Shown one piece after another: positions 7,822-50,361 of a DNA stretch of 64,000 nt. The translations under genes were made by a program, and so were the position numbers. The stretch's first letter is position 1. Each line of letters starts with the position of its first letter. The notes beneath the pieces were generated by a model. The model did not search any database and was not told the origin of the DNA. It saw only the letters and a list, made by a program, of their open reading frames with translations. This stretch comes from Thermoanaerobaculia bacterium (GTDB lineage: Bacteria; Acidobacteriota; Thermoanaerobaculia; Multivoradales; Multivoraceae): positions 1,237,116 through 1,301,115 of the forward strand of contig OZ243982.1 of assembly GCA_965214805.1 (NCBI GenBank), read 5' to 3'.

Positions 7822-8149
7822 GCGCGCCGCAACAGGCACGGCAGCCCCCGGACAGGGCGGCAAGGATCGTCCAGTGCAGATGGCCTACTGGCTCAGGGCC
7901 GCTCGCGGATCTCGAGATCGAGAGTGAATCGGGGGTCTCGGCGGGATGGACGTGACGCCTCCAAAGCCCTTGGGACCATCTGTCCCCGACTGTCACGCAA
8001 GGCGGCGTCGAAGTCGCGCGCTTCAAGCACCAGGCCGCAAGCCGCGGCCACGCCGATGACCGGCGCACGTGGCTCCACTGCCGCCGTCCGTGTGACGGAA
8101 CACAGCGGCGCGGCCGCCCTGGCTGCTACACTCACGCGTCGCCGACCAT

Positions 8150-8225
<76 letters not shown>

Positions 8226-8287
8226 TTCCGGTCGGCCTGAAACCGCGCGCCGCGGCGCTCGACGCCGCAAACACTCCTGGGGCCTGG

Positions 8288-34517: not shown

Positions 34518-36290
34518 TTGGAAACCCTCTCCGACCTGCTCTTCCGCGTCGCGGAACGCTACGGCGAACGCGAGGACCTGCTCTCCATCCGGCGGCATCG
34601 CCGGACCGAGCGGCTTTCCGCAGCCCGGTTCGTCGACGAGGTCCGCCGGACCGCAACGGCGCTCGAATCACACGGAGTGGTCAAGGGCGACCGCATTGCG
34701 CTCTTCTCGACCAACCGCCCCGAATGGCATGTGGTCGACTTCGCATGCCACCTCCTGGGAGCAGTGCCGGTACCGATCTACCCCACCCTGACCGCAGCCC
34801 AGGTGGCCTACATCCTTCTCGACAGCGGCGCCGGATGGATCTTCTACGACAACGCTGCGAAGCGGGATCTGCTCACGGGCCTGGTGACTCCCCAGGACGC
34901 GGACGAAGACGCGCGGCAGCAGGGCCTGCGTCTCGTCGCGCTCGAAGTGAACGCAACCGCGGACGGCGGAACGAACCTCGAGGCGCTGATCGACGGCGCA
35001 ACGCCGTCAGCCGATGATGGCCTCGAGCGCTTCCGGGGGCGGGTCCGACGCGACGACACGGCAAGCATCATCTACACCTCCGGTACCACCGGCGACCCCA
35101 AGGGCGTCGTCCTGTCGCACTGGAACTTCGTCTCGAACATCCTCGCGTGCCAGAAGCTCTATCCCTTGGGCGAGGAAGACAGGGCGCTCTCCTTCCTGCC
35201 CCTCTCGCATGTCTTCGAGCGCACGGTCGACTACCTGTTCTTCCACCGCGGCGTATCGATCCACTATTCCCCGGCAATCGAGCGAGTGGCCGGGCTCATG
35301 CCGAAGGTCCGGCCCACCGTCCTGTGCTCCGTACCCAGGCTCTACGAGAGCGCCTACATGCGCATCCAGGCCAACTTCGCAACGCAGCCGCGGACCCGTC
35401 GCCGCCTGATCGACTGGGCGCTCAAGGTCGGCCGGCGGCGAGCGGAGCGCGGCGGCGCGGCGCTCCGAGGCCAGATCGCCGACCGCCTGGTGTTCCGGAA
35501 GATCAAGGAACGTTTCGGCGGCTGCCTGCGCTTCACGATATCGGGCGGCGCCCCGATCGCCGACGAAGTCGGAGCGTTCTTCGACGCCATCGGCATCCGG
35601 CTCTACCAGGGTTACGGCCTGACCGAGACGGCGCCGGTGCTGGCCGTGGAGTACCCCGGCGCGGCGCGGCGCGGATCGGTCGGCACGGCGGCGCCCGGGG
35701 TCGAACTCCGCATCGACGACGACGGCGAGATTCTGGCCCGCACCGAAGGCCTGATGCAGGGCTACTGGAACCAGCCCGAGGCGACAGCCGAGGCGATCGA
35801 CCCGGACGGCTGGTTCCACACCGGCGACATCGGCAGGATCGACGACGACGGCTATCTCTACATCACAGACCGCAAGAAGGATCTGCTGGTCACGAGCGGC
35901 GGCAAGAACGTGGCGCCCCAGCCGATCGAGCAGATGATGGTGACCCACCCGGCCGTGGCGCAGGTGGTCGTGGTCGGCGACGGCTATCCGTACCTCAACG
36001 CCCTCGTGGTCCCTAACTACGCGGCCCCGCCGCCGCCGTTCGCGGGTTTGGCCGCGGACGAGCTGCGACGGGATCCGCGCCTTCAGGACACCATTCAGCG
36101 ACTGCTGGACAAGGTGAACGAACGCCTGCCCGCCCATGAACGAGTGCGCCGTTTCCGGCTTCTGGAGCGCGAACTCACGATTCAGGACGGTGAGATCACA
36201 CCCACCCTGAAGGTGCGCAGGAAGATCGTCAACGAGCGCTATCGCGACGTGATCGCCTCGATGTACCTCAAGAGCCAGCGAGTGGGTTGA
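34518..36290 (+). CDS. fadD: Long-chain-fatty-acid-CoA ligase (AMP-dependent synthetase)
   Basis: 590 aa; AMP-binding motifs IIYTSGTTGDPKGVVLSH, YGLTET, DGWFHTGDIG and TGDLKIKRR-like TPTLKVRRKIV. Confidence 0.9.
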   Translation: METLSDLLFRVAERYGEREDLLSIRRHRRTERLSAARFVDEVRRTATALESHGVVKGDRIALFSTNRPEWHVVDFACHLLGAVPVPIYPTLTAAQVAYILLDSGAGWIFYDNAAKRDLLTGLVTPQDADEDARQQGLRLVALEVNATADGGTNLEALIDGATPSADDGLERFRGRVRRDDTASIIYTSGTTGDPKGVVLSHWNFVSNILACQKLYPLGEEDRALSFLPLSHVFERTVDYLFFHRGVSIHYSPAIERVAGLMPKVRPTVLCSVPRLYESAYMRIQANFATQPRTRRRLIDWALKVGRRRAERGGAALRGQIADRLVFRKIKERFGGCLRFTISGGAPIADEVGAFFDAIGIRLYQGYGLTETAPVLAVEYPGAARRGSVGTAAPGVELRIDDDGEILARTEGLMQGYWNQPEATAEAIDPDGWFHTGDIGRIDDDGYLYITDRKKDLLVTSGGKNVAPQPIEQMMVTHPAVAQVVVVGDGYPYLNALVVPNYAAPPPPFAGLAADELRRDPRLQDTIQRLLDKVNERLPAHERVRRFRLLERELTIQDGEITPTLKVRRKIVNERYRDVIASMYLKSQRVG

Positions 36291-36389
36291 GTTCGGTCGC
36301 CGGACGAGGCGACGAGCCCGTGACCAGCCGGCCGGCTGCGCGGCATGGAGCCCCTGACGCAGCGCGCGGATCGGGCGGAGGCCAGGGAG

Positions 36390-36704
36390 CTAGTTCACGC
36401 GGCCCGACAGATCGGTGGGGTCGGGCGCCTCCTCGATGACGCCGTGGACATCCTCGTAGCGCCGGAGGTTGGCGCCCAGCGCCCTGATGATTCGCTTCAG
36501 GTGACCGGGGCTGGTCACGATGCGGGCGCTGACGATGCCCTGCGGCGGCACCACGTTGATGAAGTCGAGGATGAACTCCTCGCGCGTATGCGTGATGCGC
36601 AAGAGGTTGGAGTAGGCCCCCTTGAGCTCGGCATCGCCGATCTTGACGTTGATCGACGATGACGACTCCACGTCGCCCTGTTCTTCCCTGGATCGCTTGC
36701 TCAT
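36390..36704 (-). CDS. DUF3467 domain protein
   Basis: 104 aa (MSKRSREEQGDVESSSSINVKIGDAELKGAYSNLLRITHTREEFILDFINVVPPQGIVSARIVTSPGHLKRIIRALGANLRRYEDVHG); ATG at 36704 preceded by GGAGGA and overlapping the wzt stop by 4 nt. Confidence 0.7.
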   Translation of the reverse strand: MSKRSREEQGDVESSSSINVKIGDAELKGAYSNLLRITHTREEFILDFINVVPPQGIVSARIVTSPGHLKRIIRALGANLRRYEDVHGVIEEAPDPTDLSGRVN

Positions 36705-38113
36705 TCCATCCTCCGTGCGTCTGTCGCGCCGACGCGAAGCGGGGGCGCGCTGTCCGAATGGGCAGGCGAACGCCAATCGATCGCCGCTTGCAGGTCGGCA
36801 GCACCGCCATCGCCGCCGGCCAGCGCCTCGACATGCCACTCGTGGCAAGGCAGGTAGAGACCGATGCTCCGCAACGCGGAACTCTCGGCCACCGTGAACC
36901 GCAGCGCCTGGCGACGATAATCGTAAGCCCTGCCGTCGCGGGCGTGAACCGCGACATCGACCGTGTACTCGCCCGGCGCCAGCCGCAGTTCCGGACACGC
37001 CAGTCGCACCCGGACGGGGCCGCGCAGCAGGCGCGTTTCGTACCCGGCGAGATCGGTGTTGGTGCCCCAGCAGTCCACGCCGCGCGGCGTCTTGACCCCG
37101 ACCCCGAAGACGAAGTCGTCCAGTTCTTCCCGCGGCTCGACCTCGAGCTCAAACACCGCCGCCTCGCCGCAGTGCAGGTGATAACGCTCCTCGCAGGCGG
37201 CGCCGGCCAGGAGACGAGCGCCAGTGATCCGGGCCTGGCCGGACCCCCAGCGCAGAACTTCCTCCTCCGCGTCCGGCGGCGGCGCTGTCCCTGTTTCCTC
37301 CGGCCGCGATCTGCGGCGCTCTGCGGCCGCCGCCCGGCGACGGTCGTGAGCCTCGCCCTCGCGCGCGGCCACGGCCTCCAGATAGGCGTCGATCACCCGC
37401 CGCGTCGCACCGATCTCCCGTAGCCGCCCGCGGTCGAGCCAGACCGCCCGGTCGCAGAGTTCGTCGATCAACCCCATCGAATGGCTGACCACGAGCAGCG
37501 TCCCGCCCCGGGAAAGGTGCTCCTCGATGCGGGCGATGCAGCGGTGAACGAACTCCTCGTCGCCGACCGCCAGCACTTCGTCGACCAGGAGAATCTCGGG
37601 GTCGGTGTGGACGGCGACCGAGAAGCCGAGCCGCACGTACATGCCCGAGGAGTAGTTCTTGATCGGTTCCTCGATGAAGTCGCCCAGTCCGGCGAACTCC
37701 ACGATGTCGTCGTAGCGCTCCTCGATGCGGCGGCGGCTCAGACCGAAGAGTGCACCGTTGATGAAGATGTTCTCCCGGCCCGAGATCTCGGGATGAAAGC
37801 CCGCTCCCAGCTCGATCAGGGCGGCGATGCGGCCGTTGACCGTCAATTCGCCGGCCGTCGGCCGCAGCAGGCCCGCGACCAGCTTGATCAGCGTCGATTT
37901 CCCGGAACCGTTGCCGCCGATGATGCCCACCGCCTCCCCCGCGGCGACTTCGAAGCTGACATCCGTGAGCGCTTCGACCGCGTCGGCGGCAGCGAGTCCG
38001 CTGGTCAGGCTGCGCCCGAGGAGGGCGCTCTTCAGCGTTCGCAGGCGATAGCCGCCCGCGGCGCGGCGGTAGCGCTTGCCCACGCCGCGCAGGGCTACCG
38101 CCTGCCGACTCAA
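36701..38113 (-). CDS. wzt: Polysaccharide/O-antigen ABC transporter ATP-binding protein Wzt with a C-terminal Wzt_C carbohydrate-binding domain
   Basis: 470 aa; N-terminal nucleotide-binding domain (GIIGGNGSGKSTL, YSSGMYVRLGFSVA, LLVDEVLAVGDEEF) plus a ~200 aa C-terminal extension with a GVGVKTPRGVDCWGTNT-type motif characteristic of Wzt C-terminal glycan-recognition beta-sandwiches. Confidence 0.85.
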   Translation of the reverse strand: MSRQAVALRGVGKRYRRAAGGYRLRTLKSALLGRSLTSGLAAADAVEALTDVSFEVAAGEAVGIIGGNGSGKSTLIKLVAGLLRPTAGELTVNGRIAALIELGAGFHPEISGRENIFINGALFGLSRRRIEERYDDIVEFAGLGDFIEEPIKNYSSGMYVRLGFSVAVHTDPEILLVDEVLAVGDEEFVHRCIARIEEHLSRGGTLLVVSHSMGLIDELCDRAVWLDRGRLREIGATRRVIDAYLEAVAAREGEAHDRRRAAAAERRRSRPEETGTAPPPDAEEEVLRWGSGQARITGARLLAGAACEERYHLHCGEAAVFELEVEPREELDDFVFGVGVKTPRGVDCWGTNTDLAGYETRLLRGPVRVRLACPELRLAPGEYTVDVAVHARDGRAYDYRRQALRFTVAESSALRSIGLYLPCHEWHVEALAGGDGGAADLQAAIDWRSPAHSDSAPPLRVGATDARRME

Positions 38114-38114
38114 C

Positions 38115-38915
38115 TCAGACCGCCTCTGCCAACGTGTCGCTCAGCCGCGAGAACAGGCCGGCGCCCGCCGCCCAGGAAACCGCCGCGATCGCAGCCATGG
38201 CAGCCCACACCCGCGGCGCCGGCAGGCGTCCGTGAAACAGCAGATCCTGGATCGCCACGGTGAACGAGGTCATCGGGTTCAGTTGCACCAGTCGGGCAAG
38301 CTCGGACGGGATGTCGCCCAGGGTATAGATGATCGGCGCCAGGAAAAACAGCAGAACGAGCACGTTGCCGAGCAGATCCCGCACGTCCTTGAAATGGACG
38401 CCCAACGCCGACAATCCGAACGCGAGGCCCGCGATCATCACCGTCTCGATCACCAGCACGAGCGGCAACAGCACGCAGGTCCAGCCGGCGATGGGATAGC
38501 CGAGCAGCCTGCCGGCGACCAGGGCCAGAGCCACGATCGGCAACGCGAGCAGAAAGTGCAGAAGGTTGGACACCACAGCGACCGCCGGCAGCACCTCGAC
38601 CGGGAGCACCGCCTTGCGGATCAACCCGCTGTTGCCGGTCAGCGACGAACAGCCTTCGAGCAGCGAGGTCGAGAACCAGATCCAGGGGAAGAGACCCGTG
38701 ACGAGGAAGACGCCGTAGGGCTCGACATCAACCAGTTCCCCCCGCTTCAGGATCGCGCCGAAGACGAACGAGTAGACGGCCAGGAGCAGCAGGGGGTTCA
38801 GCAGAGACCAGAAGAAACCGAGCACGGTACCCCGATAGCGCGCCCGCAACTCCCGCTGGACCAGGGTCCACAGCAGGCCGCGGCAGCGAACGAGACATCG
38901 GGCGACCTCCAGCAT
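38115..38915 (-). CDS. wzm: ABC-2 type polysaccharide export permease Wzm
   Basis: 266 aa, six transmembrane segments, ABC-2 family profile (YRGTVLGFFWSLLNPLLLLAVYSFVFG); 1-nt spacing to wzt. Confidence 0.85.
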   Translation of the reverse strand: MLEVARCLVRCRGLLWTLVQRELRARYRGTVLGFFWSLLNPLLLLAVYSFVFGAILKRGELVDVEPYGVFLVTGLFPWIWFSTSLLEGCSSLTGNSGLIRKAVLPVEVLPAVAVVSNLLHFLLALPIVALALVAGRLLGYPIAGWTCVLLPLVLVIETVMIAGLAFGLSALGVHFKDVRDLLGNVLVLLFFLAPIIYTLGDIPSELARLVQLNPMTSFTVAIQDLLFHGRLPAPRVWAAMAAIAAVSWAAGAGLFSRLSDTLAEAV

Positions 38916-38924
38916 GAGCAGCAG

Positions 38925-41108
38925 TCATCTTACGCCCCGGACAGTCTTCTGCTCGATCTCGAGGTAGACGGGAGCGGGACCGAGCTGCACCGGTCCGGAA
39001 GGCAGCACCACGCCATCCCGGTCGCGTGCGGCGCGCACGCCGATCCGGGGACGGCAGGCCCGGCCGCGGCGGTCCAGCGCCCATTGCACCTGGACCTCGC
39101 GGCTCGGCGTCGTTGCCCGATAGCCGCGCACACCCGCCGGCAACGGGAGGCGTTCCACCCGGGCGCCGGCCAACTCGCGCTGGAGCTGACGCAGGGCGCG
39201 GTAGGCCGGCCGCCGTCGCAAGGAACCGCCTCGGGGGTCGACAAGCCCGTAGCCAGCCGCCGACAACTGCCACCAGTAGACGCGCTCGACGAGACCGGTC
39301 CCCAGAGCCTCGAGGCAGTAGCGAACGAGGTAGCTGGCCTGGGTGTCCTCGTCCACCGCGACATCTCGTCCGGCGGGCGCGTGAGGCCCTTCCCTGAGCG
39401 GCCAGTTGAACTCGGTGATCCAGCTCCGATCCGACGCACAGTCCGGAGCCCGACGGGCAAGCGCCCGCAGCAAGGCCAGCTTGCCCGCGAGGTCGAAACC
39501 GAGTTGAGGGTTCTCGGGCGCCCCTCGCCGGTCGACGTAGAGCTGACTGGCAAGGATGTCGAAGCGATGCTCCGGCAAACCCGAATGAACCAGACCGGCC
39601 GTTGCGTGGGGCTCGAAGTCGATCACCGCCGGAGCGAGGACGCGCGCATCCGGATTCGCCGCCCGCACGGCTTCGCCGGCAGCAGCCAGCAGATTCCAGT
39701 ACTCGTCCGGGCGCCACACGCCCCACTTGCTGCGGTTGGGCGCCTGACCGATGAGGAACGTGCTGCCCAGGGGCGAAAGGGCGGCGACGGCCTCCTCCAC
39801 GCGCCGCAGCCAGAGTCCGTTGTCCCGGACCAGCGATCGGTCCTGAGCAAGATGGAACACGAGATCGGCCGGCTGCAGCGCCCTCCGGGCGAGGATCTCC
39901 GCCAATCGCAGCAGATCCCTGTCCAGACCCTGCCAGAGATGGAAGCGCAGCAGAACGCTCTCCACCCCGAGATCGTCGAGCGCCTCGACCAGAGCGCCGA
40001 CCGGCGCCGAGTCCGGACCCACCGCCACGCCAAGTCCGCGAAAGGGGACTCTGTCCGGTGCTCGTTCGATTCTCCGGCGGAGGCGCTTCCCCTCGACGAT
40101 CGTTGCGAGCAGCGGCCCGGCGGCGCGAAGCAGGGGCCGGGCGTGGCGGGCGGCGTCACGCAGGCGAACTCCGAGGCGCTGGCCGCGTGTCGCCTGCTGG
40201 TGCGGCTGGTCAGTGAGCGGATCCCAGACCGCCCGCTCCTGGGGCTTCGCTCCGCGGTCGGAGGCCGGAATGTGGGGATGGGCGCGGCGGCGCGGCAGCA
40301 GCAGATCGGCGAGGCGTCGCAGCCCGCGGCGAGCGCCGTCCTTGGTCCGGATCCTGAGACGGAAGCCGTGGTGACAGACCCCGAACCAGAGCCGCTCCAA
40401 CCGGGACAACCCGCCGGAGCGATAGCCGCGCAGGTACTCCGACCGGTCCGCAGACCGCAACACCGGCATCCTGCCCAGGTCCCGCAGGCGCTGACTCGCC
40501 GACAGCCGGCGCCGGAAGCGGGCCCGGTTGAGATCCACGAGGTACAGCTCCGCATCCGTGGTCGGGGCCGCCAGCAGCACGTTGCCCGAGGTCAGGTCCC
40601 GAAACCAGATGCCGTGACGATGCAACTCCGCGGCCAGAGCGCCGACCCGCCGCAGCAGCGCCGGCCCGTCGATTCCCGGAAAACGCGCCGCGCCCTCTCC
40701 CGCATTCAACGCCCTGAGCACATGCCGCAACTCCGTGGCCTCCGGCACCAGCCGGCACACGAACCACGCAGGACCCTCCAGGGCCTTCGACTCGGCATAG
40801 AGAATCGGTTCCGGCGTCGCGATGCCCAGCTTCCCGAGCCGGCGCGCGGCATCGAAGCTCAGGCGCGCCCGCGTGCCTCGGCGGCGCCGGCGGAGTCTGG
40901 CGTGCAGGTCGTCATGGCGGAACTGCTTCACGACCACGGCGACATCGCCCTCGTTCCGGCTGCCATGCCATGCCGTTTCGTACAGGTAGTTCCTGCCCCA
41001 ATGCAGGCTGCGGGTGGCCTTGGCCGGATCGAGGAGGCGCCTGAGCGCGGCCTCGAAGTTCGCGTCCAGGTCGCCGGGGACGGCCTCCGGCGCCACGGCG
41101 CCGCGCAA
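38925..41108 (-). CDS. Fusion protein: N-terminal lipopolysaccharide-kinase-like domain (Kdo/WaaP family, PF06293-like) plus C-terminal glycoside-hydrolase-like TIM-barrel domain
   Basis: Single open frame with no stops from just after the rng stop to 38925. Residues NYLYETAWHGSRNEGDVAVVVKQF...LHRHGIWFRDLTSGNVLL...LYLVDLNRARF match the Kdo/WaaP LPS-kinase fold. About 450 aa downstream follow with (beta/alpha)8-like periodicity and a WITEFNWP...VYWWQL motif resembling the nucleophile strand of clan GH-A hydrolases (GH5/GH39-like). Start uncertain: TTG at 41108 or GTG at 41096; an upstream ATG would overlap rng by about 200 nt. The 1610 aa track ORF is this gene plus a shadow running through rng and rodA in a different frame. 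Confidence 0.6.
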   Translation of the reverse strand: MRGAVAPEAVPGDLDANFEAALRRLLDPAKATRSLHWGRNYLYETAWHGSRNEGDVAVVVKQFRHDDLHARLRRRRRGTRARLSFDAARRLGKLGIATPEPILYAESKALEGPAWFVCRLVPEATELRHVLRALNAGEGAARFPGIDGPALLRRVGALAAELHRHGIWFRDLTSGNVLLAAPTTDAELYLVDLNRARFRRRLSASQRLRDLGRMPVLRSADRSEYLRGYRSGGLSRLERLWFGVCHHGFRLRIRTKDGARRGLRRLADLLLPRRRAHPHIPASDRGAKPQERAVWDPLTDQPHQQATRGQRLGVRLRDAARHARPLLRAAGPLLATIVEGKRLRRRIERAPDRVPFRGLGVAVGPDSAPVGALVEALDDLGVESVLLRFHLWQGLDRDLLRLAEILARRALQPADLVFHLAQDRSLVRDNGLWLRRVEEAVAALSPLGSTFLIGQAPNRSKWGVWRPDEYWNLLAAAGEAVRAANPDARVLAPAVIDFEPHATAGLVHSGLPEHRFDILASQLYVDRRGAPENPQLGFDLAGKLALLRALARRAPDCASDRSWITEFNWPLREGPHAPAGRDVAVDEDTQASYLVRYCLEALGTGLVERVYWWQLSAAGYGLVDPRGGSLRRRPAYRALRQLQRELAGARVERLPLPAGVRGYRATTPSREVQVQWALDRRGRACRPRIGVRAARDRDGVVLPSGPVQLGPAPVYLEIEQKTVRGVR

Positions 41109-41149
41109 GCCGTCGAGTTCGAACCGGCGCTCCGGTCTCGACTCGGCGG

Positions 41150-42655
41150 TCAGATCCGCCCCCCGGTTTCGGCGTCGACGACAACGAAACGCTCGCGATG
41201 CAATTCCGGGTCCGCCTGAACCAGGATCGGCGCCGCGAACGCCCCCTGCAGGCCGTCCAGCACCGCCGACTCGGCGCCGCGCAGACCATCCAGCACCTCC
41301 GGATGGACCCGCACCGCCAACTGACGAACGCCTCTCCCGGCGCGCGCAAGGCATGTCCGCCGCAGTTCCAGGCAGATCGTCGCGACCGACTTGATGCGGC
41401 CTGCGCCTCCACAGGTCGGGCAGTCCCGGGTCAGCAGCTTCTCCAGGTTCGTGTGGCTGCGGCGACGAGTCAGCTGGACCAAGCCGAACTCCGAGATATC
41501 GAGCACCCTGTGCCTGGCGCGGTCCTTCTCCAGCTCCCGTTCCAGGCGGGCGAACACCTTCTCGCGGTGATCTTCGCGCCCCATGTCGATCAGATCGATG
41601 ACAAGGATGCCGGACAAGTCGCGCAGCCGGATCTGACGCACCGCCTCGACGACCGCTTCCAGGTTGGTCCGCAAGACGGTCTCGTCGAAGTCCGCGGCAC
41701 CGACGTCGCGGCCGCTGTTGACGTCGATGGCCACCAGGGCCTCCGTCTGGTTGATGACCAGATAGCCGCCTGACGGAAGCGGGGCGCGGTCCCGCAGCGC
41801 GGCTTCGACCGCGTCGTCGATCCGATAGCGCTCGAACAGACCCCTCCGGGTCCGCTCCACCCGTTCCCGGAGTTCCGGCTGCATCCGCCCGACGTAGCCG
41901 GCGATGCGGCGGTAGGCATCGGCGCCGTCCACCAGCAGCGAGTCGAAATCCGCGGAGAAGAGGTCCCGGATGACGCGCACATCCAGTTCGTCCTCGCGGC
42001 AGATCAGAGCCGGCGCTGTCGTGGCCGCCGTCCGTTCCTCGATCCGTCGCCAGGCGGCGGCCAGCGCCTCGTACTCCGCCTGGATGCGCTCTTCCGCCGC
42101 TCCTGCCGCGGCAGTGCGCACGATGCAACCCGGCAGAGCAACGGCGTCGTCGCGCCTGGCCTGGACCAGCCCCTTCAGGCGATTTCGTTCGTCCGCGTCC
42201 TCGATGCGCCTCGAAACGCCCACGCGGCCGCTGGTCGGCGTCAGCACCAGGAGCCGACCGGGAAGCGTGATCCGGGCGGTGATGCGCGCCCCCTTCGCCG
42301 CCATCCCGTCCCTGATGACCTGCACGATGAGATCCTGGCCCCGCCGCAGCACGTGATCGATCGCCGGCGCCGCTTCCCTGCTCGGCGCCCCGCGGCAAGC
42401 GCTCTCGGCGACCGGTGCTGCCGACCCCCCTTCGACCGCGTCGTCCGCCCAGAGGTAGCCGTCGCGCGCCAGTCCGAGATCCACGAAGGCGGCTCGCATG
42501 CCAGGCAGCACCCTTCGCACCCGTCCCTTGTAGAGGTTGCCGACCAGGCTCCGGCGTCCGCGGCGCTCGACGAGAAGCTCGACCAACCGGCCGGACTCGA
42601 CCACGGCTGCCCGCGTCTGGAGCGAATCGCTCTCGACCAGGAGCTCCCTGTCCAT
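41150..42655 (-). CDS. rng: Ribonuclease G (RNase E/G family)
   Basis: 501 aa; S1 domain (VGNLYKGRVRRVLPGMRAAFVDLG) and the RNase E/G catalytic core including DLIDM and the CPTCGGAGRIKS zinc link. Confidence 0.9.
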   Translation of the reverse strand: MDRELLVESDSLQTRAAVVESGRLVELLVERRGRRSLVGNLYKGRVRRVLPGMRAAFVDLGLARDGYLWADDAVEGGSAAPVAESACRGAPSREAAPAIDHVLRRGQDLIVQVIRDGMAAKGARITARITLPGRLLVLTPTSGRVGVSRRIEDADERNRLKGLVQARRDDAVALPGCIVRTAAAGAAEERIQAEYEALAAAWRRIEERTAATTAPALICREDELDVRVIRDLFSADFDSLLVDGADAYRRIAGYVGRMQPELRERVERTRRGLFERYRIDDAVEAALRDRAPLPSGGYLVINQTEALVAIDVNSGRDVGAADFDETVLRTNLEAVVEAVRQIRLRDLSGILVIDLIDMGREDHREKVFARLERELEKDRARHRVLDISEFGLVQLTRRRSHTNLEKLLTRDCPTCGGAGRIKSVATICLELRRTCLARAGRGVRQLAVRVHPEVLDGLRGAESAVLDGLQGAFAAPILVQADPELHRERFVVVDAETGGRI

Positions 42656-42697
42656 GCGTTGCGGGCGACCGATCCTGTCCGTGCCGGCGCAGGCCGA

Positions 42698-43816
42698 TCA
42701 GGCGTTGACGAACCGCCGCAGGTCCAGGCCGACGATCAGTCCGGTGGCCGCGCAGCAGAAAAGCATGAAGGAGCCGCCGTAGCTCAGGAAGGGCAACGGA
42801 ACGCCGGTGATCGGCAGCAGCCCGACCACCATGGCCGTATTGTAGAGAACGTGGCCGGCGATGAAGGCCAGGAGTCCGACCACGAGCAGCAGACCCGCAG
42901 GATCCCGCGCCGCCAGTGCCACACGGACGCCGTTCCCCAGGTAGAGGAGGAACAGGGCCATGGCGAGGATGACGCCGGCAAACCCGTACTCTTCTGCCAG
43001 CACCGCGAACACGAAGTCGGTGTGAGCAACCGGCAGGAAGCGCAGGCTGGATTGCGTCCCCTCGCCGAGTCCCTTTCCGAAAGCCTGACCCGAACCGACG
43101 GCGATCCTGCTCTGACGGACCTGGTAGCCCGCCCCCAGTGGATCCGCCTGGGGGCGGAGGTAGCTCAGGACACGTTCCTTCTGGTAGTCCCGCAAGGTGA
43201 AGGTCCAGAGCGCTCCAGCCAGTGCCACTGCGACTGCGGCGGCTGCGAGCGCCGAGCGGCCGCTGACACCGGTAGTGGCCGCCATGGCGGCGAGCACGAG
43301 CACGAACATCAGGGCGCCGCCCATGTCCGGCTGCAGCGCGATGAGCAGCACCGGAACCGCCGCGATCGCCGCGGCTGCCCACAGCCCGCCGCGAGGAGGA
43401 ACCGGGCGCCGATAGCGGGCGAAGCGTCGGGCCAGCAGCAGAACGGTGGCGATCTTGCAGAAGTCCGACGGCTGGCCCCCGAACCCCCCGATGCCGATCC
43501 AGCTGCGGGCGCCGCCTGCCTCGTGGCCGAAGAACGTGACCGCCGCCACCGCCGCCACCGCCGCCAGGTAGATCCAGACGGCGTGCCGAAGCAGCACGGA
43601 ATGGTCGATCAGAGCCGCGGCCACCAGGACCAGCACACCCAGGACGATCCACACCGACTGGCGCGAAACGTAGTTCGTCGGCAGCTCGGCGGAAGCGCTC
43701 GAGATCACGAACAGACCGATCACCGACAGACCGAGCGCCGAACCGACGATCTGCCACGTGATGGAACGGGCCTGGTTCGCCAGGGTCCGCGGATCAGGTC
43801 TGAACGGCAGGATCAA
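42698..43816 (-). CDS. rodA: Rod-shape-determining protein RodA (SEDS family)
   Basis: 372 aa SEDS polytopic membrane protein (HTDFVFAVLAEEYGFAGV, LPFLSYGGSFML); TTG start at 43816 overlaps the mrdA stop by 23 nt. Confidence 0.9.
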   Translation of the reverse strand: MILPFRPDPRTLANQARSITWQIVGSALGLSVIGLFVISSASAELPTNYVSRQSVWIVLGVLVLVAAALIDHSVLLRHAVWIYLAAVAAVAAVTFFGHEAGGARSWIGIGGFGGQPSDFCKIATVLLLARRFARYRRPVPPRGGLWAAAAIAAVPVLLIALQPDMGGALMFVLVLAAMAATTGVSGRSALAAAAVAVALAGALWTFTLRDYQKERVLSYLRPQADPLGAGYQVRQSRIAVGSGQAFGKGLGEGTQSSLRFLPVAHTDFVFAVLAEEYGFAGVILAMALFLLYLGNGVRVALAARDPAGLLLVVGLLAFIAGHVLYNTAMVVGLLPITGVPLPFLSYGGSFMLFCCAATGLIVGLDLRRFVNA

Positions 43817-45545
43817 AGTACGTCTCGTGCAAACGCTTCGCCAGCGGCGCGGCGGCTTCGGAGCCTCGTCCTCCGTGTTCCACGAGCACGACGACGACCA
43901 GCTCCGGCATCTCGACCGGCGCGTAGGAAGTGAACCACGCGTGATCTCCGTGCTCGGGCGGGAGGTCCTCGGACCGCGTCCACGTCGCCTGAGCGACGAC
44001 CTGGGCAGTGCCTGTCTTGCCCGCGATCGGAACGACCCGCGTGCTGGCGCGGCGCCCGGTCCCGTTCGCGACCACGTTCGCCAACGCCTCCCCGACGAAG
44101 GCCATCACGTCGCCATCCACGGCAATCGACGCCGGCGGCTGCGCTCCGCCCTGCAGCACGTGGGGCCTAACCCGGAATCCCCCGTTCGCCACCGCCGCGG
44201 TCATTGCGGCAACCTGAAGCGGCGAAGCGAGCACCGGCCCTTGGCCGATCGCCACCGAAATCGTCTCGCCCGGGTACCAGGGGAAACCCCGGCTCTCCCG
44301 ACTCCAATCGGGATCCGGCACCAGCCCCTCGCGTTCGGCGGGAAATTCGATGCCTGTTCGCCGACCGAGGCCCAGCAAACGGGCGTACCGGGCGATCCTG
44401 TCGATTCCCATCCTGCGGCCCTGCAGGTAGAAGTAGATGTCGCAGGAATGCTGCAGGGCGCCTCGGAGATCGAGGCGGCCGTGCCCCCTGGACTGCCAGC
44501 AACGCCAGCGGCGGCCGTACACACGGGTCGTGCCGCCGCAGTGGACTCGCTCGGCCGGATCGATCAGTCCGTCGGACAGCGCGGCCACGGCCATCACGAT
44601 CTTGAACACGGATCCCGGCGGGTAGGTGTTGTGGATGGTCCGGTTCTGAAGCGGTCCGGCCGGGGCTCCGACGATCCGCTCCCACTCCTCCTGGTCGAGG
44701 CGGCCTGCAAAGCCGTTCGGATCGAAGGACGGCGAGGAGACCATGGCCCGAACCGCGCCGTCCCGCGGGTCGAGGGCAACGATCGCTCCAGCCTTGCCTT
44801 CGAGCAGTTTCTGCGCTTCCTGCTGCAGTGCAAGATCGATGGTCAGAGTGACCGACTCGCCCGGCAGCGCATCGGTTCGCTTGACGTCCTCGCTCGACAC
44901 GATGCGGCCGCGGCTGTCGACGATCACGGTTCGCGCGCCGGCGGTCCCGCGCAACTCCTGGTCCCGCAACCCCTCCACGCCGCTGCGGCCGATCAGGTCG
45001 CCGGCAACGAGGGTCGGGTCGCTGTCCCGTTCGGCCGGCGTCGGCTCGCTCAGGTAGCCCAGAAGATGCGCGGTCTGCTCGCCGTACCGGTACAGGCGGC
45101 GCCACGTGGCCGCGATCTCGAACTCCGGGTGCTCCGAGATGTCGCCAGCGACCTCGAACCGCGCGACCTGGTTGAACTCGAGTTCCTCGGCCAGGAGCAC
45201 GGGCACATCCCGAGGCACGCCGCGGTATCGCTCGAGCACTTTCTCCAGTTCGGTTTCGTCGCGACCCAGGACGTTGGCTGCAAAGGCCAGGCTGGCTTCC
45301 GGATCGGCACTCCGCAGGCGATCGAAAAAGAGCCGGAACGTGGGAACGTTCTCGGCCAGAAGGTGACCGGAGCGGTCGTATATGGGACCCCGAAGCGCTT
45401 CCAGGCGGAGCACCCGCAGCCGGTTGTTCTCTGCAAGCTCCAGATAGTGCTCGGAACGAACGATCTGGACATGCCAATAGGAACTCAGAACAACGAGGAA
45501 CGCCGCCGCGAGCGATGACGCGAGTCTTCTCAGGCGGGTCGCCAT
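43794..45545 (-). CDS. mrdA: Penicillin-binding protein 2 (elongasome transpeptidase)
   Basis: Internal ATG at 45545 (MATRLRRLASSLAAAFLVVLSSYWHVQIV); dimerisation domain plus transpeptidase with SVFK (SxxK), SDG-like and KTGT motifs. Confidence 0.9.
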   Translation of the reverse strand: MATRLRRLASSLAAAFLVVLSSYWHVQIVRSEHYLELAENNRLRVLRLEALRGPIYDRSGHLLAENVPTFRLFFDRLRSADPEASLAFAANVLGRDETELEKVLERYRGVPRDVPVLLAEELEFNQVARFEVAGDISEHPEFEIAATWRRLYRYGEQTAHLLGYLSEPTPAERDSDPTLVAGDLIGRSGVEGLRDQELRGTAGARTVIVDSRGRIVSSEDVKRTDALPGESVTLTIDLALQQEAQKLLEGKAGAIVALDPRDGAVRAMVSSPSFDPNGFAGRLDQEEWERIVGAPAGPLQNRTIHNTYPPGSVFKIVMAVAALSDGLIDPAERVHCGGTTRVYGRRWRCWQSRGHGRLDLRGALQHSCDIYFYLQGRRMGIDRIARYARLLGLGRRTGIEFPAEREGLVPDPDWSRESRGFPWYPGETISVAIGQGPVLASPLQVAAMTAAVANGGFRVRPHVLQGGAQPPASIAVDGDVMAFVGEALANVVANGTGRRASTRVVPIAGKTGTAQVVAQATWTRSEDLPPEHGDHAWFTSYAPVEMPELVVVVLVEHGGRGSEAAAPLAKRLHETYFDPAVQT

Positions 45546-45616
45546 CAGGAGCACCACGCCGTCGGCGCTGCGCTCGCGGCCAGGAGCTTCCAGGTTCACC
45601 TTCCAGACACCCCTGC

Positions 45617-46153
45617 TCAGCGAAGACGCAGCTGCCGGCGTGTCAGTGCACGCCGCTTCGTCCGGCTCTCCCTGCGGCCTCGCATCCGATCCTTCACCCA
45701 GAGAACGACCAGGCCCACCGCTGTCGTCAATACCACGCGCAGCAGCACGGCGCCCGCGCCCGGTCTGAACTGTGCAAGCTCGAGCATCGCGAACAGGCCG
45801 ATCACGACTGCCTGATGAACCAGCACCCCGATCGCGATCAGCGTCAGGGTCACCAGCCGCTCGGTAGCGAGAACCCGCTGCGAGACGCGCGCAGCGCCAT
45901 AGCCGACCACACAGCACGCCACACCGTGCAAACCGGGAACCGACGACGTGACGAGGTCCTGGACCAGGCCTGCGGCCAGTCCGCCTGCCAGACCTCGAAG
46001 GGAATCGCCCGGAACGCTGTTCAGGACAACCAGCAGCACGAAGAGGTCGACGGTTTCGGCGGCCTTCGAGGAGATCGCGCCGAACAGCATGTCGACCAGG
46101 GCAACTGCCGCCAGGACGCCGACGAACCTGGCAGCCCTACCGGCTGCTGCCAT
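45617..46153 (-). CDS. mreD: Rod-shape-determining protein MreD
   Basis: Small polytopic membrane protein immediately after mreC; start ambiguous (ATG at 46153 overlapping mreC by 17 nt, or at 46090). Confidence 0.65.
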   Translation of the reverse strand: MAAAGRAARFVGVLAAVALVDMLFGAISSKAAETVDLFVLLVVLNSVPGDSLRGLAGGLAAGLVQDLVTSSVPGLHGVACCVVGYGAARVSQRVLATERLVTLTLIAIGVLVHQAVVIGLFAMLELAQFRPGAGAVLLRVVLTTAVGLVVLWVKDRMRGRRESRTKRRALTRRQLRLR

Positions 46154-46976
46154 CCGCGCCGTCCATGCCGACTTCGGGCAGGGGTTCGCGGCGCCACACG
46201 AAGGCATGGCTCAGCGAACCGAGATCCACGCTCGGGACGATTCGTATGTCGTGGAACAGATCGCCCTTCGACTCCACGGACGTGATCGTGCCGATCGGAA
46301 CGCCGCGGGGGAACACGCCGTCGATTCCGGCAGTGACGACCCGATCGCCAGGTCGGACATCGACCCGAAGCGGCAGGAACATGAGGGACAGAGCGCCTGC
46401 GTCGGCCGTGCCCCGGACGATGCCCTGCCGGCGCGTGCGCTCGACCATCGCGGCCACCGAAGACGCCCGGTCCGTGACCAGGAGTACCCGCGCGTACTTG
46501 CCGCTGGCCGAGACGACACGGCCCAAGAGGCCGTCCGTCGTGGTCACCGGACGCCGCGCCCAGTCTTCCCGGTCTCGGCCGCCAGGCAGGTGCAGGATCG
46601 CCGTTCGCCGCCGCGAGCGGTGATCGACATGGACGATGTCGGCCCGCTGCAGATCAGCGCGCGGCGCCGGCTCGAAGCGCAGCGGCGCCGAAGCGAGATC
46701 TGCTTCCAGCCGCGCACCCACCGCGGCCGCATGGGCGGATTCCAGGTCACGCAGCCGATTCCGCAGCTCCTCGTTCTTCCGCTCCAGCTCGGCCCTCGTG
46801 GAACGGTCCTCCCTGTAGCGGTCCACAGCCCGGCCAACAGCCGCGACGAACCTCTTGACCGGTCCGTCGAGCCGCAACGCGACGTTGTCTGCCTGCTCGG
46901 GCGCCCGAAGCGTCAGCAGCGACAGGAGGACAGCCACGACAACCGCGAACAGGACCGCTATCCAACGTTCGCTCAT
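46137..46976 (-). CDS. mreC: Rod-shape-determining protein MreC
   Basis: 279 aa; N-terminal TM helix, coiled coil (LERKNEELRNRLRDLE), C-terminal beta-barrel domains (GDRVVTAGIDGVFPRGVPIGTI). Confidence 0.85.
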   Translation of the reverse strand: MSERWIAVLFAVVVAVLLSLLTLRAPEQADNVALRLDGPVKRFVAAVGRAVDRYREDRSTRAELERKNEELRNRLRDLESAHAAAVGARLEADLASAPLRFEPAPRADLQRADIVHVDHRSRRRTAILHLPGGRDREDWARRPVTTTDGLLGRVVSASGKYARVLLVTDRASSVAAMVERTRRQGIVRGTADAGALSLMFLPLRVDVRPGDRVVTAGIDGVFPRGVPIGTITSVESKGDLFHDIRIVPSVDLGSLSHAFVWRREPLPEVGMDGADGSSR

Positions 46977-47089
46977 GGATGGCCGTTCTCTTCGTTCAGG
47001 AACCTGCGAAACGTCCGGCTGTGGCGGCGGCTACAGCAGCCCGCGGCGAAAGTCCCGCTGCATTCGACACGGACGGCGCCCACGGGCCG

Positions 47090-48106
47090 CTAGCGAACGG
47101 AGACCCTTCGCAGCAGATCGATGTCCCGCAGTACCTGGCCCGCTCCGAGCGCGACGCAGGCGAGCGGATCCTCGGCGGCGAAGGCCGGCAGTCCCGTGGC
47201 CTCACGCAGACGCTGGTCCAGCGAGCGAAGCAGCGCTCCGCCGCCGGTGAGCACGATGCCCTTGTCCATCACGTCGGCCGAGAGTTCCGGCGGCATCCGT
47301 TCCAGGGCCTGAAGCACCGAATCGACAATCGACTTCACCGGCTCCGCGAGCGCTTCCCTGATTTCTCCGTCGGAGATCCTCAGACCGCGCGGCACGCCCG
47401 CGACGAGGTCGCGGCCCTTGATGTCCATCTGCAGCGTCTTCTGGAGCGGGAAGGCAGACCCCAGTTCGATCTTGATCGCCTCCGCGGTCCGCTCGCCGAT
47501 CAGCATGTTGTGCTTGCGCTTGAGGTGCTGGGCGATCGCTTCGTCCATGGCGTTGCCCGCCACCCGCAGCGAGCGGCTGTAGACCGTGCCGGCAAGCGAG
47601 ATGACGGCGACGTCCGTTGTACCGCCGCCGATATCGACGATCATGTTGCCGGTCGGTTCGGTGATCGGCAGACTGGCCCCGATCGCTGCCATCATTGCCT
47701 GCTCGACCAGGAACACCTCCGAGGCGCCGGCGCTCATTGCCGATTCCCGGACCGCGCGTTTCTCGACCGGAGTGATCTCGGACGGCACGCCGATCACGAT
47801 TCGGGGGCGGGCAAAGCGCCGGCCGTGGTGGGCCCTGCGGATGAAGTGCTTGAGCATCTGCTCGGTCATGTCGAAGTCGGCGATGACCCCGTCCCTCATC
47901 GGCCGCACGAGCGCCAGGATGCCCGGCGTACGGCCCAGCATCTCCTTGGCCTCGGAACCGACTGCCTCGATGCGGTTGGTCTGGTTGTTCACGACCACCA
48001 CCGACGGCTCGTGAACGACGATGCCGTTCTCCTGGTTGAACACCAGGGTATTCGCGGTCCCCAGGTCGATTGCCAGGTCGCTCGAGAACCAGGGCAGCAT
48101 GCGCAA
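47090..48106 (-). CDS. mreB: Rod-shape-determining actin homologue MreB
   Basis: 338 aa; DLAIDLGTANTLVF phosphate-1 motif, VIGVPSEIT, DIGGGTTDVAVISL. Confidence 0.95.
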   Translation of the reverse strand: MRMLPWFSSDLAIDLGTANTLVFNQENGIVVHEPSVVVVNNQTNRIEAVGSEAKEMLGRTPGILALVRPMRDGVIADFDMTEQMLKHFIRRAHHGRRFARPRIVIGVPSEITPVEKRAVRESAMSAGASEVFLVEQAMMAAIGASLPITEPTGNMIVDIGGGTTDVAVISLAGTVYSRSLRVAGNAMDEAIAQHLKRKHNMLIGERTAEAIKIELGSAFPLQKTLQMDIKGRDLVAGVPRGLRISDGEIREALAEPVKSIVDSVLQALERMPPELSADVMDKGIVLTGGGALLRSLDQRLREATGLPAFAAEDPLACVALGAGQVLRDIDLLRRVSVR

Positions 48107-48408
48107 TGGACCGAACCTCCTAGGAAGCGGCGCGGTGCGCGCCGCGTGCTGCCGGGCTTCGGGTTGTCGCCGGCGCCGGCGCGCCTTTCGTCAACAAGGT
48201 CGGATTCCCGCCACAGGAAGCGGGCAAACGTGCTTGAAGATAACACAGGCAGGCGCATCGACTGTCGCGGGAAGATCCCGTGTTCGGAACGGGTTTCGGC
48301 GAATGACGGCGCGGCTGCGGCCGACGGCGGCGACGCCCGGCCGACGGGAGGCGCGCCAGTCCTGCTACCATCGGCGGCGCCGTCGCGCACCCGTCAGGAA
48401 CCGCTTCC

Positions 48409-50361
48409 ATGCTGAACGTCATCCGCAAGAACATCAAGAGCTTCTATCCGCTGGCGATCGGACTTGCGGGCGTGTTCGTGCTCCTGGTCTTCACCGACTT
48501 TCAGGCACTGGACGGCACCCAGGCCAACCCGGTTGCGGCCAGGGTGGGCCGGGAGGACATCTCGTTCGCCGAGTTCGAGCGCAGCTACAGGAACGCCGAG
48601 AGCCGCTACCGGGAGATCTACGGCGACGCGTTCACCGCGGATCTGGCCGATCAACTGCAACTTCCCGTTCAGGCCCTGGAAGCCCTGATCAACGACCGCC
48701 TCCTCACCCGGGAGGCCGAGCGCATGGGGCTGACGGTCAGCAGGGAAGAATTGCAGGAGGAGATTCTCTCCATACCCGGCCTGACCGACGCCGCCGGCAA
48801 TTTCATCGGCACGCGCGCGTACCAGGATCTGTTGCGCGCCAACCGCTACACGGTGGAAGAGTTCGAGGCCCAGCTGCGCACCTCTCTGCTGGTGGCCAAG
48901 CTGCAGAACGCACTGAGCGAGGTGGCGCACGTCTCCGACGCCGAGGTGGAGAAGCGCGCCCGCATCGCGGCCGAGCGGGCGGCCATCCGGTACATCCAGG
49001 TCCCGGCCAACCGGTACGCTGCCGAGGCCGAACCCTCGAGCGACGAGACGGCCGCCTTCTTCCAGACCAACCGCGCCGACTTCCGGCTGCCCGAACGCAG
49101 GCGGGTCGGCTACCTCCTGGTCAACACGAACACGGTCCGCGCCGACCTCGAAGTGACCGACGACGAAGTCCAGGAGTACTACGACGACAACAGCGCACAG
49201 TTCGAGATACCGGAACAGGTGCGGGCCAGCCACATCCTCCTGCTCGAGACCGGCAGCCGCAGCGGCGAGCAGGCGCGGGCCGAGTTGAACGACCTCCGCC
49301 GCCGCATCGAGAACGGCGAGGATTTCGCCGCGCTCGCCTCCGAGTACTCGGAAGACGAGGCGACCGCCGCGTCCGGCGGCGACCTGGGCTACTTCGGCCG
49401 CGGCGCCATGACACGGCAGTTCGAGGAGGCGGTCTTCGCGGCCGGCACGGGCGACCTTGTCGGCCCGGTCGAGAATCAACTCGGACCCCGTACCGGACAT
49501 CACCTGATCCGCGTCCAGGACCGTCGCGAAGGCGGCCGGCAGACGCTTGACGAGGTGAGCAACCTGATCCGCGTCCAGCTCCTTGCCACGAAGGCGGAGG
49601 AGGAAGGCCGGCGCCGCATCGACGCCGTCGCGGAAAGACTGGGCGACCAGCCGTTCGAGGGCGAGACCGAAGCCCGGGAGCTGGCGGCTGCCGAGGGCCT
49701 CGCCTTCGAGGTCACGGAGCCGTTCGGCCAGGACGACACGGTTCCCGGCGTAGGCCGCAACTTCAACTTCTCCGCCGAGACGTTCGGCCTCGAAACCGGC
49801 GCCTGGTCGCAGCCGGTCCGCATCGCGGCGGGGTGGGCCCTGCTCGCGCTGCTGGACGTTCTGCCGCCCCGCGACGCCGAGTTCGCAGAGGTCGAGGCCG
49901 ACGTGCGCGAGGCCTTGCGCCAGCAGAAGGAAAGTGAACTTCTGACTGCCGCGCTCTCCGAAGCGAGGACGCGGCTGGACGATGGACTCAGCCTGGACGA
50001 CGCAGCGAACGAGTTCGACGCCGTGGTCGAAGAAAGCGGCAGCTTCGGTCTGCGCCAGGCGATCGGCGCCCTGGGCGCCGTGCCGGAGCTCTCCCGGGAA
50101 GTCTTCGCGCTCTCCGCGGGCGAGTTTGGCGGCCCGGTTCACACCCCGTTCGGCGGGGTCCTGTTCGAGGTCACGGCGCGGGAGTCCTTCGACCCGGCCC
50201 GGTTCGACCCGGAAACCACCCGGAGTCAACTGCTCTCCGAGCGTACGCTGACGTTGCTTCAATCCGTGCTGGGGCGCCTGCGCGAAGAGCTTGGCGTCAG
50301 CTACACGAAGGACTTCATCGAGAACTTCGGTCTCGGCGAGACCGAAGCGGCCGGAGCCTGA
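48409..50361 (+). CDS. ppiD: Periplasmic chaperone / peptidyl-prolyl isomerase, PpiD/SurA-like
   Basis: 650 aa; N-terminal membrane anchor (YPLAIGLAGVFVLLVF), SurA-N-like chaperone region, central parvulin PPIase domain (VRASHILL...GGDLGYFGRGAMTRQFEEAVFA). Confidence 0.8.
   Translation: MLNVIRKNIKSFYPLAIGLAGVFVLLVFTDFQALDGTQANPVAARVGREDISFAEFERSYRNAESRYREIYGDAFTADLADQLQLPVQALEALINDRLLTREAERMGLTVSREELQEEILSIPGLTDAAGNFIGTRAYQDLLRANRYTVEEFEAQLRTSLLVAKLQNALSEVAHVSDAEVEKRARIAAERAAIRYIQVPANRYAAEAEPSSDETAAFFQTNRADFRLPERRRVGYLLVNTNTVRADLEVTDDEVQEYYDDNSAQFEIPEQVRASHILLLETGSRSGEQARAELNDLRRRIENGEDFAALASEYSEDEATAASGGDLGYFGRGAMTRQFEEAVFAAGTGDLVGPVENQLGPRTGHHLIRVQDRREGGRQTLDEVSNLIRVQLLATKAEEEGRRRIDAVAERLGDQPFEGETEARELAAAEGLAFEVTEPFGQDDTVPGVGRNFNFSAETFGLETGAWSQPVRIAAGWALLALLDVLPPRDAEFAEVEADVREALRQQKESELLTAALSEARTRLDDGLSLDDAANEFDAVVEESGSFGLRQAIGALGAVPELSREVFALSAGEFGGPVHTPFGGVLFEVTARESFDPARFDPETTRSQLLSERTLTLLQSVLGRLREELGVSYTKDFIENFGLGETEAAGA

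Follow-up and report, generated by a model that had tools for sequence, protein, structure and literature searches.

A predicted WaaP-type kinase fused to a clan GH-A-like barrel that keeps its nucleophile and appears to lack its acid/base

Why would a bacterium join a lipopolysaccharide (LPS) kinase fold and a glycoside hydrolase (GH)-like barrel in one polypeptide, and what could such a barrel do if its catalytic motifs are not the canonical ones? A gene of a Thermoanaerobaculia bacterium raises both questions. It lies at 38925-41108 on the minus strand of the 64,000-nucleotide stretch analysed here, which we call the window, ends with a stop codon at 38925-38927 and encodes 727 residues counted from TTG 41108. 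An earlier note on this DNA, made from its letters alone, had described the product as a kinase-barrel fusion. We now propose, with a probability of roughly one half, that it is a soluble cytoplasmic two-module enzyme of LPS assembly, in which a WaaP-type kinase and its barrel partner act on a lipid-linked glycan.

The coding status of 38925-41108 is confirmed: this is a genuine, intact gene. All motifs quoted for the polypeptide, among them VAVVVKQF (40943-40920), VDLN (40538-40527) and APNRSKWG (39743-39720), lie in one unbroken minus-strand frame, as the earlier note had it. The frame stays open for 1610 codons (38925-43757, minus strand), running across rng and rodA in another frame than theirs; because the DNA is about 69% G+C, this openness alone is no proof of a gene. 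From 41153 to 38925 the G+C fractions at the three codon positions are coding-like (0.77/0.53/0.83), and they reverse, to 0.83/0.74/0.46, immediately above the stop codon of rng (41150-41152). Searches returned 327 homologues at E<=1e-3, those listed being 44-98% identical, nearly all 690-830 residues long and spanning both halves. A relative is encoded in 405 GTDB species-representative genomes; the listed ones all belong to the Acidobacteriota (Thermoanaerobaculia, Holophagae, ‘Candidatus Multivorans’), with several closed chromosomes among them. The G+C signature, the homologues and the 405 genomes together mean that the stretch codes for protein.

A break across the domain junction would have separated the two halves. 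Neither frameshift nor stop was found there, and the halves are joined in every one of these genomes. That the fusion arose when an error of sequencing or assembly joined two genes can be rejected: nothing speaks in its favour, and full-length fusions are present in over 300 protein clusters and in the 405 species genomes, closed chromosomes included. Since the protein has neither a signal peptide nor a membrane helix (maximal Kyte-Doolittle score over 19 residues, 1.22), it is shown, at the level of prediction, to be cytoplasmic.

Residues 1-270 (40299-41108, minus strand) make up a WaaP-type, protein-kinase-like domain of the Kdo/WaaP family. They match Pfam PF06293 with 44.5 bits against a cut-off of 21.3 (E 1.6e-11, residues 69-214), the family profile finds Pseudomonas aeruginosa WaaP (6DFL) at E 7.5e-11, and structural matches give a protein-kinase-like fold that is closest to WaaP. 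When the two are aligned, FRD and VDLNRA of the kinase half fall on HRD and IDLHRA of WaaP, so that the catalytic Lys, Asp, Asn and Asp could be mapped. They are K61 on strand beta3 (40926-40928), D171 and N176 in the catalytic loop HRHGIWFRDLTSGNVLL (40622-40572), which aligns with the HRD...N of WaaP, and D192 in the DFG-equivalent VDLN (40527-40622 together with the catalytic loop), all on the minus strand; D192 is assigned by its invariance and by the WaaP alignment. The four residues are invariant in alignments of 32 and 87 sequences. With its catalytic residues invariant, this Kdo/WaaP-family kinase is predicted to be active. The LPS-kinase fold that had been read from the lysine strand and from the HRD-like and DLN segments is thus borne out by the PF06293 match and by the conservation.

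The remainder of the protein is built as a barrel module. A beta-hairpin followed by a 42-residue helix (residues 290-349, 40062-40241) leads into a clan GH-A-like (beta/alpha)8 barrel (residues 350-647, 39168-40061), which is closed by a C-terminal beta-sandwich like that of GH39, GH30 and GH51 enzymes (residues 648-727, 38928-39167; all on the minus strand). All four elements appear in an AlphaFold2 model of residues 265-727 with a mean predicted local distance difference test score (pLDDT) of 91.2 and a predicted template modelling score of 0.92. The sandwich is assigned by secondary structure, by fold comparison and by a marginal sequence match to the sandwich of 5jvk. An eight-stranded barrel followed by a beta-sandwich is the arrangement of clan GH-A and GH39, and the best structural matches are indeed to GH39, GH30, GH5, GH79 and GH51, with the GH39 enzyme PslG of P. 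aeruginosa in second place at 23% identity.

Sequence searches with the barrel half gave little. Pfam at E<=10 returned only noise for the C-terminal half of 20 members and no glycoside hydrolase family, PF01229 and PF00150 included; NCBIfam returned only kinase models for the full-length protein; and the best match of the family profile to PDB sequences in the barrel half had an E of 0.21. A canonical reference came from a weak tblastn search against plasmids, which led to two secreted hypothetical proteins in betaproteobacterial exopolysaccharide clusters (L083 3071-4543 and L084 2840-4507; relatives P0121-P0168). Both carry VGNEPHN or IWNEP as well as WITE(M/L)GWP. We gathered 31 homologues of one of them and compared the two families profile to profile with HHalign. 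The match has a probability of 99.3% and an E of 2.6e-20 over 349 aligned columns with 27% consensus identity, and it covers both barrel and sandwich.

This secreted family is the nearest relative of the barrel by sequence and has the WITExxWP strand in common with it; it differs in carrying a signal peptide, in lacking a kinase and in its VGNEPHN and WITEMGWP motifs. Its members are labelled ‘hypothetical’ in almost every source, most of them have no Pfam match, and they are probably PslG-like glycan-trimming hydrolases. The assignment of the barrel half to clan GH-A, as a putative GH39/PslG-like domain, is supported by the modelled fold and by this profile homology, and the glycoside-hydrolase-like barrel of the earlier note is retained after structure prediction and profile comparison of the separate domains.

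The comparison with the canonical family also tells which catalytic residues are kept. In strand beta7, WITEFNW (39402-39422, minus strand), E566 aligns with the invariant nucleophile Glu of WITE(M/L)GWP, and it is kept in 106/106 sequences; the alignment and the column counts thus uphold the nucleophile strand that had been singled out by eye. At the end of strand beta4 and in the loop that follows, IGQAPNRSKWGVW (residues 453-465, 39714-39752, minus strand), the profiles place I-G-Q455-A456-P457 on the V-G-N-E-P of the canonical family, A456 being the first letter of APNRSKWG. Not one of the 106 sequences has Asp or Glu anywhere at positions 454-467. Of 153 representatives, 59 have HA at the N-E position, 26 have QA and 24 have NA (21 have no motif match), and Ala stands at the Glu position in most of them. 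The 24 representatives that keep the Asn of N-E and then have Ala support the register with A456.

By these alignments, then, the barrel is predicted to retain its nucleophile and to be without an acid/base: one of its two catalytic residues is lost. This agrees with the earlier statement that no clear NEP motif is present, and the caution attached to it, that the domain could be a binding module, a transglycosylase or a diverged enzyme, matches what the evidence allows. As the family-defining acid/base residue is missing, the barrel should not be filed as GH39. Our first guess had been that R459 replaces the acid/base; the profile-profile alignment and the N-A variants favour A456 instead, tentatively so because the loop has a low pLDDT.

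In the beta4 loop N458, R459, W462 and G463 are invariant, and S460 and K461 nearly so. By alignment and column counts, in the loop after beta6, YVDRRGAPE (39513-39539, minus strand), Y524 and E532 match positions that do not vary in the canonical family, and R527-R528 form an invariant basic insertion specific to the barrel family. The family-specific invariants comprise four basic residues (R459, K461 and the inserted R527 and R528) as well as N458, D497 and E499; on the loops around the pocket, D497, E499, D526, E532 and E573 are invariant acidic positions. The two loops that are best conserved in the barrel are those modelled with the least confidence by AlphaFold2, with pLDDT 61 at residues 455-464 (39717-39746) and 72 at residues 575-584 (39357-39386), and above 90 in the remainder of the model. 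Such values would fit loops that become ordered only upon binding a ligand.

How far does this domain extend beyond the Acidobacteriota? We searched 1.84 billion representatives exhaustively with the barrel by phmmer and obtained at least 550 clusters at E<=1e-3, of which 190 reach E<=1e-30. We sorted 153 retrieved sequences by hidden Markov models of kinase and barrel: 61 have the kinase followed by the barrel, two (both from Candidatus Schekmanbacteria) have the opposite order, and 90 have the barrel only, near-complete in 54 of these. One protein of the first group, 1113 residues long, is a fusion of a family 4 glycosyltransferase (GT4), kinase and barrel. Aligned members have in common G-[HQN]-A-x-N-R-x-K-W-G, VIDFE, LLYVDRRGAPE, WITExNWP and a W-D-x-x-S-x-Q-P hairpin, and none of them has an NEP motif. 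The hairpin, which carries the invariant motif VWDxL(S/T)DQPHQ before the barrel, and the helix after it occur in stand-alone barrels too, and therefore belong to the barrel module rather than being a mere linker.

The pair of kinase and barrel occurs across several bacterial phyla, for the most part within clusters of LPS-core genes. Fusion in both orders, together with the adjacency of the split genes, is classic evidence that kinase and barrel are evolutionary partners and functionally coupled. We found no description of the pair in the literature and no name for the stand-alone barrels in the sources consulted, and neither a Pfam or NCBIfam model nor a paper was found that covers the barrel family or its association with WaaP-type kinases. 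Current labels for such proteins are ‘InaA family kinase’, ‘Bud32’ and ‘hypothetical’.

What the pair might act on is suggested by the genes around the barrel in other phyla. We examined eight such loci. Barrel genes stand next to a GT9 heptosyltransferase and a WaaL-like Wzy_C protein (L085); after LpxL-like, GT2, GT4, four GT9 and Wzy_C genes (L090); and amid LpxL-like, GT9, GT4 and GT90 genes, followed further on by another GT9, GmhA and HldE (L092). In L088 a Kdo-family kinase abuts the barrel, and in L091 a GT2 gene precedes a GT4-kinase-barrel triple fusion. L087 has a GT9 gene, a methyltransferase-Kdo-kinase fusion and the barrel. Counted by type, GT9 heptosyltransferases are found in four of the eight loci, Wzy_C/WaaL-like proteins in two, a lipid A acyltransferase in two, and GmhA with HldE in one. 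The recurrence of GT9, WaaL, LpxL and heptose-pathway genes points to the LPS inner core. As for the fusion in L087 (5496-7001, candidate-division CSSED10-310), it joins a membrane methyltransferase (PEMT/ICMT) to a Kdo-family kinase and lies between the GT9 gene and a stand-alone barrel; such a pairing recalls the WbdD methyl-phosphate capping enzymes.

We therefore favour a role of the fusion protein in LPS assembly. By analogy with WaaP, the kinase (residues 1-270) would transfer phosphate to a hydroxyl group on a sugar of a lipid-linked glycan, on the cytoplasmic side of the membrane, its likeliest substrate being an inner-core heptose or a neighbouring sugar. The barrel (residues 290-727) may bind the very anionic core oligosaccharide on which the kinase acts. 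Its family has kept the sugar-binding landmarks and E566, exchanged the acid/base Glu for Ala (N-E-P to Q/H/N-A-x) and gained the basic loops N458-R459-S460-K461 and R527-R528. If the barrel is catalytic at all, the loss of its general acid/base disfavours plain hydrolysis, and it might carry out glycosyl transfer with phosphate, in place of water activated by a general base, as leaving group or acceptor.

Several observations weigh against this reading. By NCBI thresholds the kinase half is not predicted to be a WaaP orthologue (31.5 bits against the 170 of NF011703), nor a KdkA (28.3 bits against 142). The link to the LPS core is transferred from barrels of other phyla with 30-42% identity, and two of just eight contexts there (L086 and L089) contain no core genes; no LPS-core or glycosyltransferase gene is found in the 64-kb window or beside the acidobacterial homologues. 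An N-terminal membrane anchor is present in 3/16 aligned stand-alone barrels (P0191, P0202, P0246), and some stand-alone barrels are probably periplasmic proteins that work independently of any kinase. Model confidence is low in the beta4 loop, and an ungapped manual alignment to the second canonical relative (L084) puts N458-R459-S460, instead of Q455-A456-P457, on N-E-P; neither register supplies a carboxylate at the acid/base position. Finally, a purely lectin-like, non-catalytic barrel is equally compatible with the evidence. Concerning L089, its membrane-anchored barrel (7001-8422) adjoins ArnT-like PMT_2 genes of the GT-C type; the anchor and these neighbours suggest a periplasmic, kinase-free branch.

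A bolder version of the proposal gives the phosphate a direct part. The barrel would be a natural retaining glycosidase without acid/base in which phosphate replaces water: a glycosyl-enzyme formed at E566 and the Arg/Lys loops would transfer a sugar to or from the phosphate installed by the kinase, or from a glycosyl or polyprenyl phosphate donor. We consider this unlikely. There are parallels, which bear on the main proposal as well, for the nucleophile kept with the acid/base carboxylate missing, namely plant myrosinase (GH1, with Gln at the acid/base position) and the GH3 beta-N-acetylglucosaminide phosphorylases, which belong to other families than the barrel. Acid/base-less retaining glycosidases, engineered acid/base mutants among them, act on substrates with a good anionic leaving group or employ phosphate or other anions as nucleophile, and mutation of the acid/base Glu to Ala is the chemists’ route from a glycosidase to a ligase.

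The surroundings of the gene in the window bring other functions into play. On the minus strand the order is mreB, mreC, ..., pbp2, rodA, rng, the fusion gene, wzm, wzt and DUF3467, with gaps of 41, 9 and 1 bp between rng, fusion gene, wzm and wzt. Immediately upstream, rng (RNase G, 41150-42655) closes the recognisable part of the mreB-mreC-pbp2-rodA-rng cluster. Downstream follow the ABC-2 permease gene wzm (38115-38915; PF01061, E 7e-19), the gene wzt for an ATP-binding cassette (ABC) ATPase with a C-terminal glycan-binding Wzt_C domain (36701-38113; PF00005 and PF14524, E 1.2e-24) and the DUF3467 gene (36390-36698), all on the same strand. In the genome of the window the fusion gene is predicted to head an operon and to be co-transcribed with the genes of the O-polysaccharide exporter Wzm-Wzt. 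A scan of 36000-48500 for promoters and terminators gave counts at chance level, and operon boundaries were not set by it. The rest of the window consists of housekeeping genes.

Among acidobacterial loci, rng lies upstream of the fusion gene in 74/79 informative ones. The wzm-wzt pair is found within about 10 kb downstream in 45/82, directly downstream in most of these and in all 40 close relatives (L003-L042); in L044 the sequence ends just after the gene. The linkage includes homologues of 44-50% identity (L041, L042, L045, L050, L067), and of some 36 distant loci only about 7 show the pair in the 10 kb considered. Distant acidobacterial homologues are followed by M16 peptidases and an HtrA-like protease, whose genes are convergent or vary between loci and hence are uninformative. 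The four-gene module of fusion gene, wzm, wzt and DUF3467 is found again in 32 loci, and these take in the distant L041 and L067. The complete cell-elongation cluster (mreB, mreC, pbp2, rodA, rng; 41150-48106, minus strand) keeps its order in almost all related acidobacterial genomes.

It is from wzm and wzt that the main rival explanation draws its strength. The fusion protein could be a WbdD-like terminator of an ABC-transporter-dependent O-polysaccharide, whose kinase caps the non-reducing end with phosphate, whose barrel presents the chain end and whose cap is read by Wzt_C. The gene is tightly packed before wzm and a Wzt_C-bearing wzt, the arrangement recurs in 45 loci down to the homologues of 44-50% identity, and known terminators have kinases of varied folds, one with a putative carbohydrate-binding module (PMC11231755, PMC3482155). 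Like the fusion protein, WbdD is a cytoplasmic kinase on a lipid-linked glycan that is linked to Wzm and to a Wzt with a carbohydrate-binding domain. However, it has a methyltransferase, a long coiled-coil ruler and no glycosidase-like domain, whereas the fusion protein contains no methyltransferase and, in models of its two halves, shows just two helices of 35 and 42 residues instead of an extended coiled coil. Nor does the 64-kb window hold a polymerase glycosyltransferase gene, and WbdD lies outside the top 60 structural matches of the kinase. We at first favoured this reading for its wzm-wzt(Wzt_C) linkage and demoted it because of the family-wide contexts, in which the barrels of other phyla sit in core clusters, not in O-polysaccharide clusters. 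The linkage is also scarce in the distant loci. We now hold it to be rather unlikely.

The nucleophile and the fold would also suit a genuine PslG-like hydrolase that trims a polysaccharide, with its acid/base moved to another strand and an incidental kinase fusion. PslG ranks second among the structural matches, the nearest canonical sequence relatives stand in exopolysaccharide clusters, and any of the invariant D497, E499, D526, E532 and E573 around the pocket might be called upon. But the acid/base Glu is replaced across a family of at least 550 clusters in which the nucleophile is retained, the fusion protein is predicted to be cytoplasmic while the canonical relatives have signal peptides, and no exopolysaccharide genes were found nearby in the 64-kb window. 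We know of no relocation of the acid/base within clan GH-A, and regard this alternative as quite improbable. More improbable still is a role in cell-wall elongation, such as salvage of peptidoglycan sugars or release of undecaprenyl phosphate from stalled lipid-linked glycans, which would explain the place of the gene at the end of an mreBCD-pbp2-rodA-rng operon. The rng-rodA-pbp2 genes directly upstream lie on the same strand in the 74 of 79 informative loci across the class, at gaps from 0 bp (L001) to 41 bp (the window), and no terminator-like signal above chance stands between the genes. Yet this synteny is limited to one phylum, LPS-core genes being the neighbours in others, and neither domain resembles known peptidoglycan-recycling enzymes in its structural matches. 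A terminal rng is, to our knowledge, a widespread positional habit of mre operons with no functional link known.

Returning to the LPS-assembly reading, the known systems closest to each module can be set beside it. WaaP (RfaP), the LPS core heptose(I) kinase, has PF06293 and the catalytic Lys, Asp, Asn and Asp in common with the fusion kinase but lacks the 440-residue barrel module; it is essential in Pseudomonas (PMC3147165). The GH39 enzymes PslG (4ZN2) and that of Bacteroides cellulosilyticus (5JVK) share with the barrel the nucleophile Glu of strand beta7, the Tyr of beta6 and the Trp of beta8. The acid/base Glu of PslG is E165 (PMC4928890), which has no counterpart in the barrel. Compared with these enzymes, the fusion barrel is predicted to be cytoplasmic and has extra invariant basic loops as well as the N-terminal W-D-x-x-S-D-Q-P hairpin and long helix.

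There is a precedent for the architecture as such. TreS:Pep2 fusions of the GlgE pathway, found in about 100 species, act on consecutive steps with their two modules (PMC6509496), and like the fusion protein they combine a GH-family triosephosphate isomerase (TIM) barrel, a C-terminal beta-sandwich and a protein-kinase-like sugar kinase in one chain. They differ in having a GH13 barrel with complete catalytic residues, in the order of barrel before kinase, in making maltose-1-phosphate for the synthesis of alpha-glucan and in having no link to LPS. No GH13 enzyme is found among the 60 best structural matches listed for the barrel, and maltokinase is the ninth match of the kinase, behind WaaP: the resemblance is architectural only. 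The earlier view that a kinase-GH fusion is an undescribed architecture must thus give way to this precedent, and holds for the pairing of a WaaP-type kinase with this barrel, for which no description was found.

A smaller matter concerns the start of the gene, for which TTG 41108 and GTG 41096 had been named. A third candidate, CTG 41153, joins them. A start at GTG 41096 would drop the conserved [LM]-x-G-A residues. TTG 41108 is viable, because its position is an ATG in L009, L019, L033 and L034. CTG 41153, the sole in-frame start candidate upstream, overlaps the rng stop codon (ATCTGA), sits 5 nucleotides downstream of a Shine-Dalgarno-like GGGGGG run and would add 15 codons, LTAESRPERRFELDG (41109-41153, minus strand), whose G+C content at third positions is coding-like. 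The upstream peptide PERRFE[FL]D[GD] (PERRFELDG in the window) is kept in 38 close relatives, and its equivalent F-x-[FL]-x-G-x-x-G-E-V is internal to the protein in all distant homologues. At the place of CTG 41153, about 20 relatives have TTG and L019 has GTG, and the group of the window itself has CTG. Against it, L009 has an ATG at the position equivalent to 41108 and no upstream start. The likelier start candidates of the fusion gene are therefore CTG 41153 and TTG 41108.

Phosphorylation of the LPS core governs outer-membrane stability and LPS export. A conserved module that accompanies WaaP-type kinases in several phyla points to a step, or a specificity factor, still missing from the account of LPS assembly beyond the model organisms, and hundreds of proteins could receive a two-module annotation. 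A large natural family of clan GH-A with Ala in place of the acid/base could, in turn, reveal new transglycosylation or phosphorolysis chemistry. If the phosphate-using barrel were true, it would make or remove a sugar-1-phosphodiester in LPS, and would be a new non-Leloir enzyme class in the assembly of the LPS core in several phyla.

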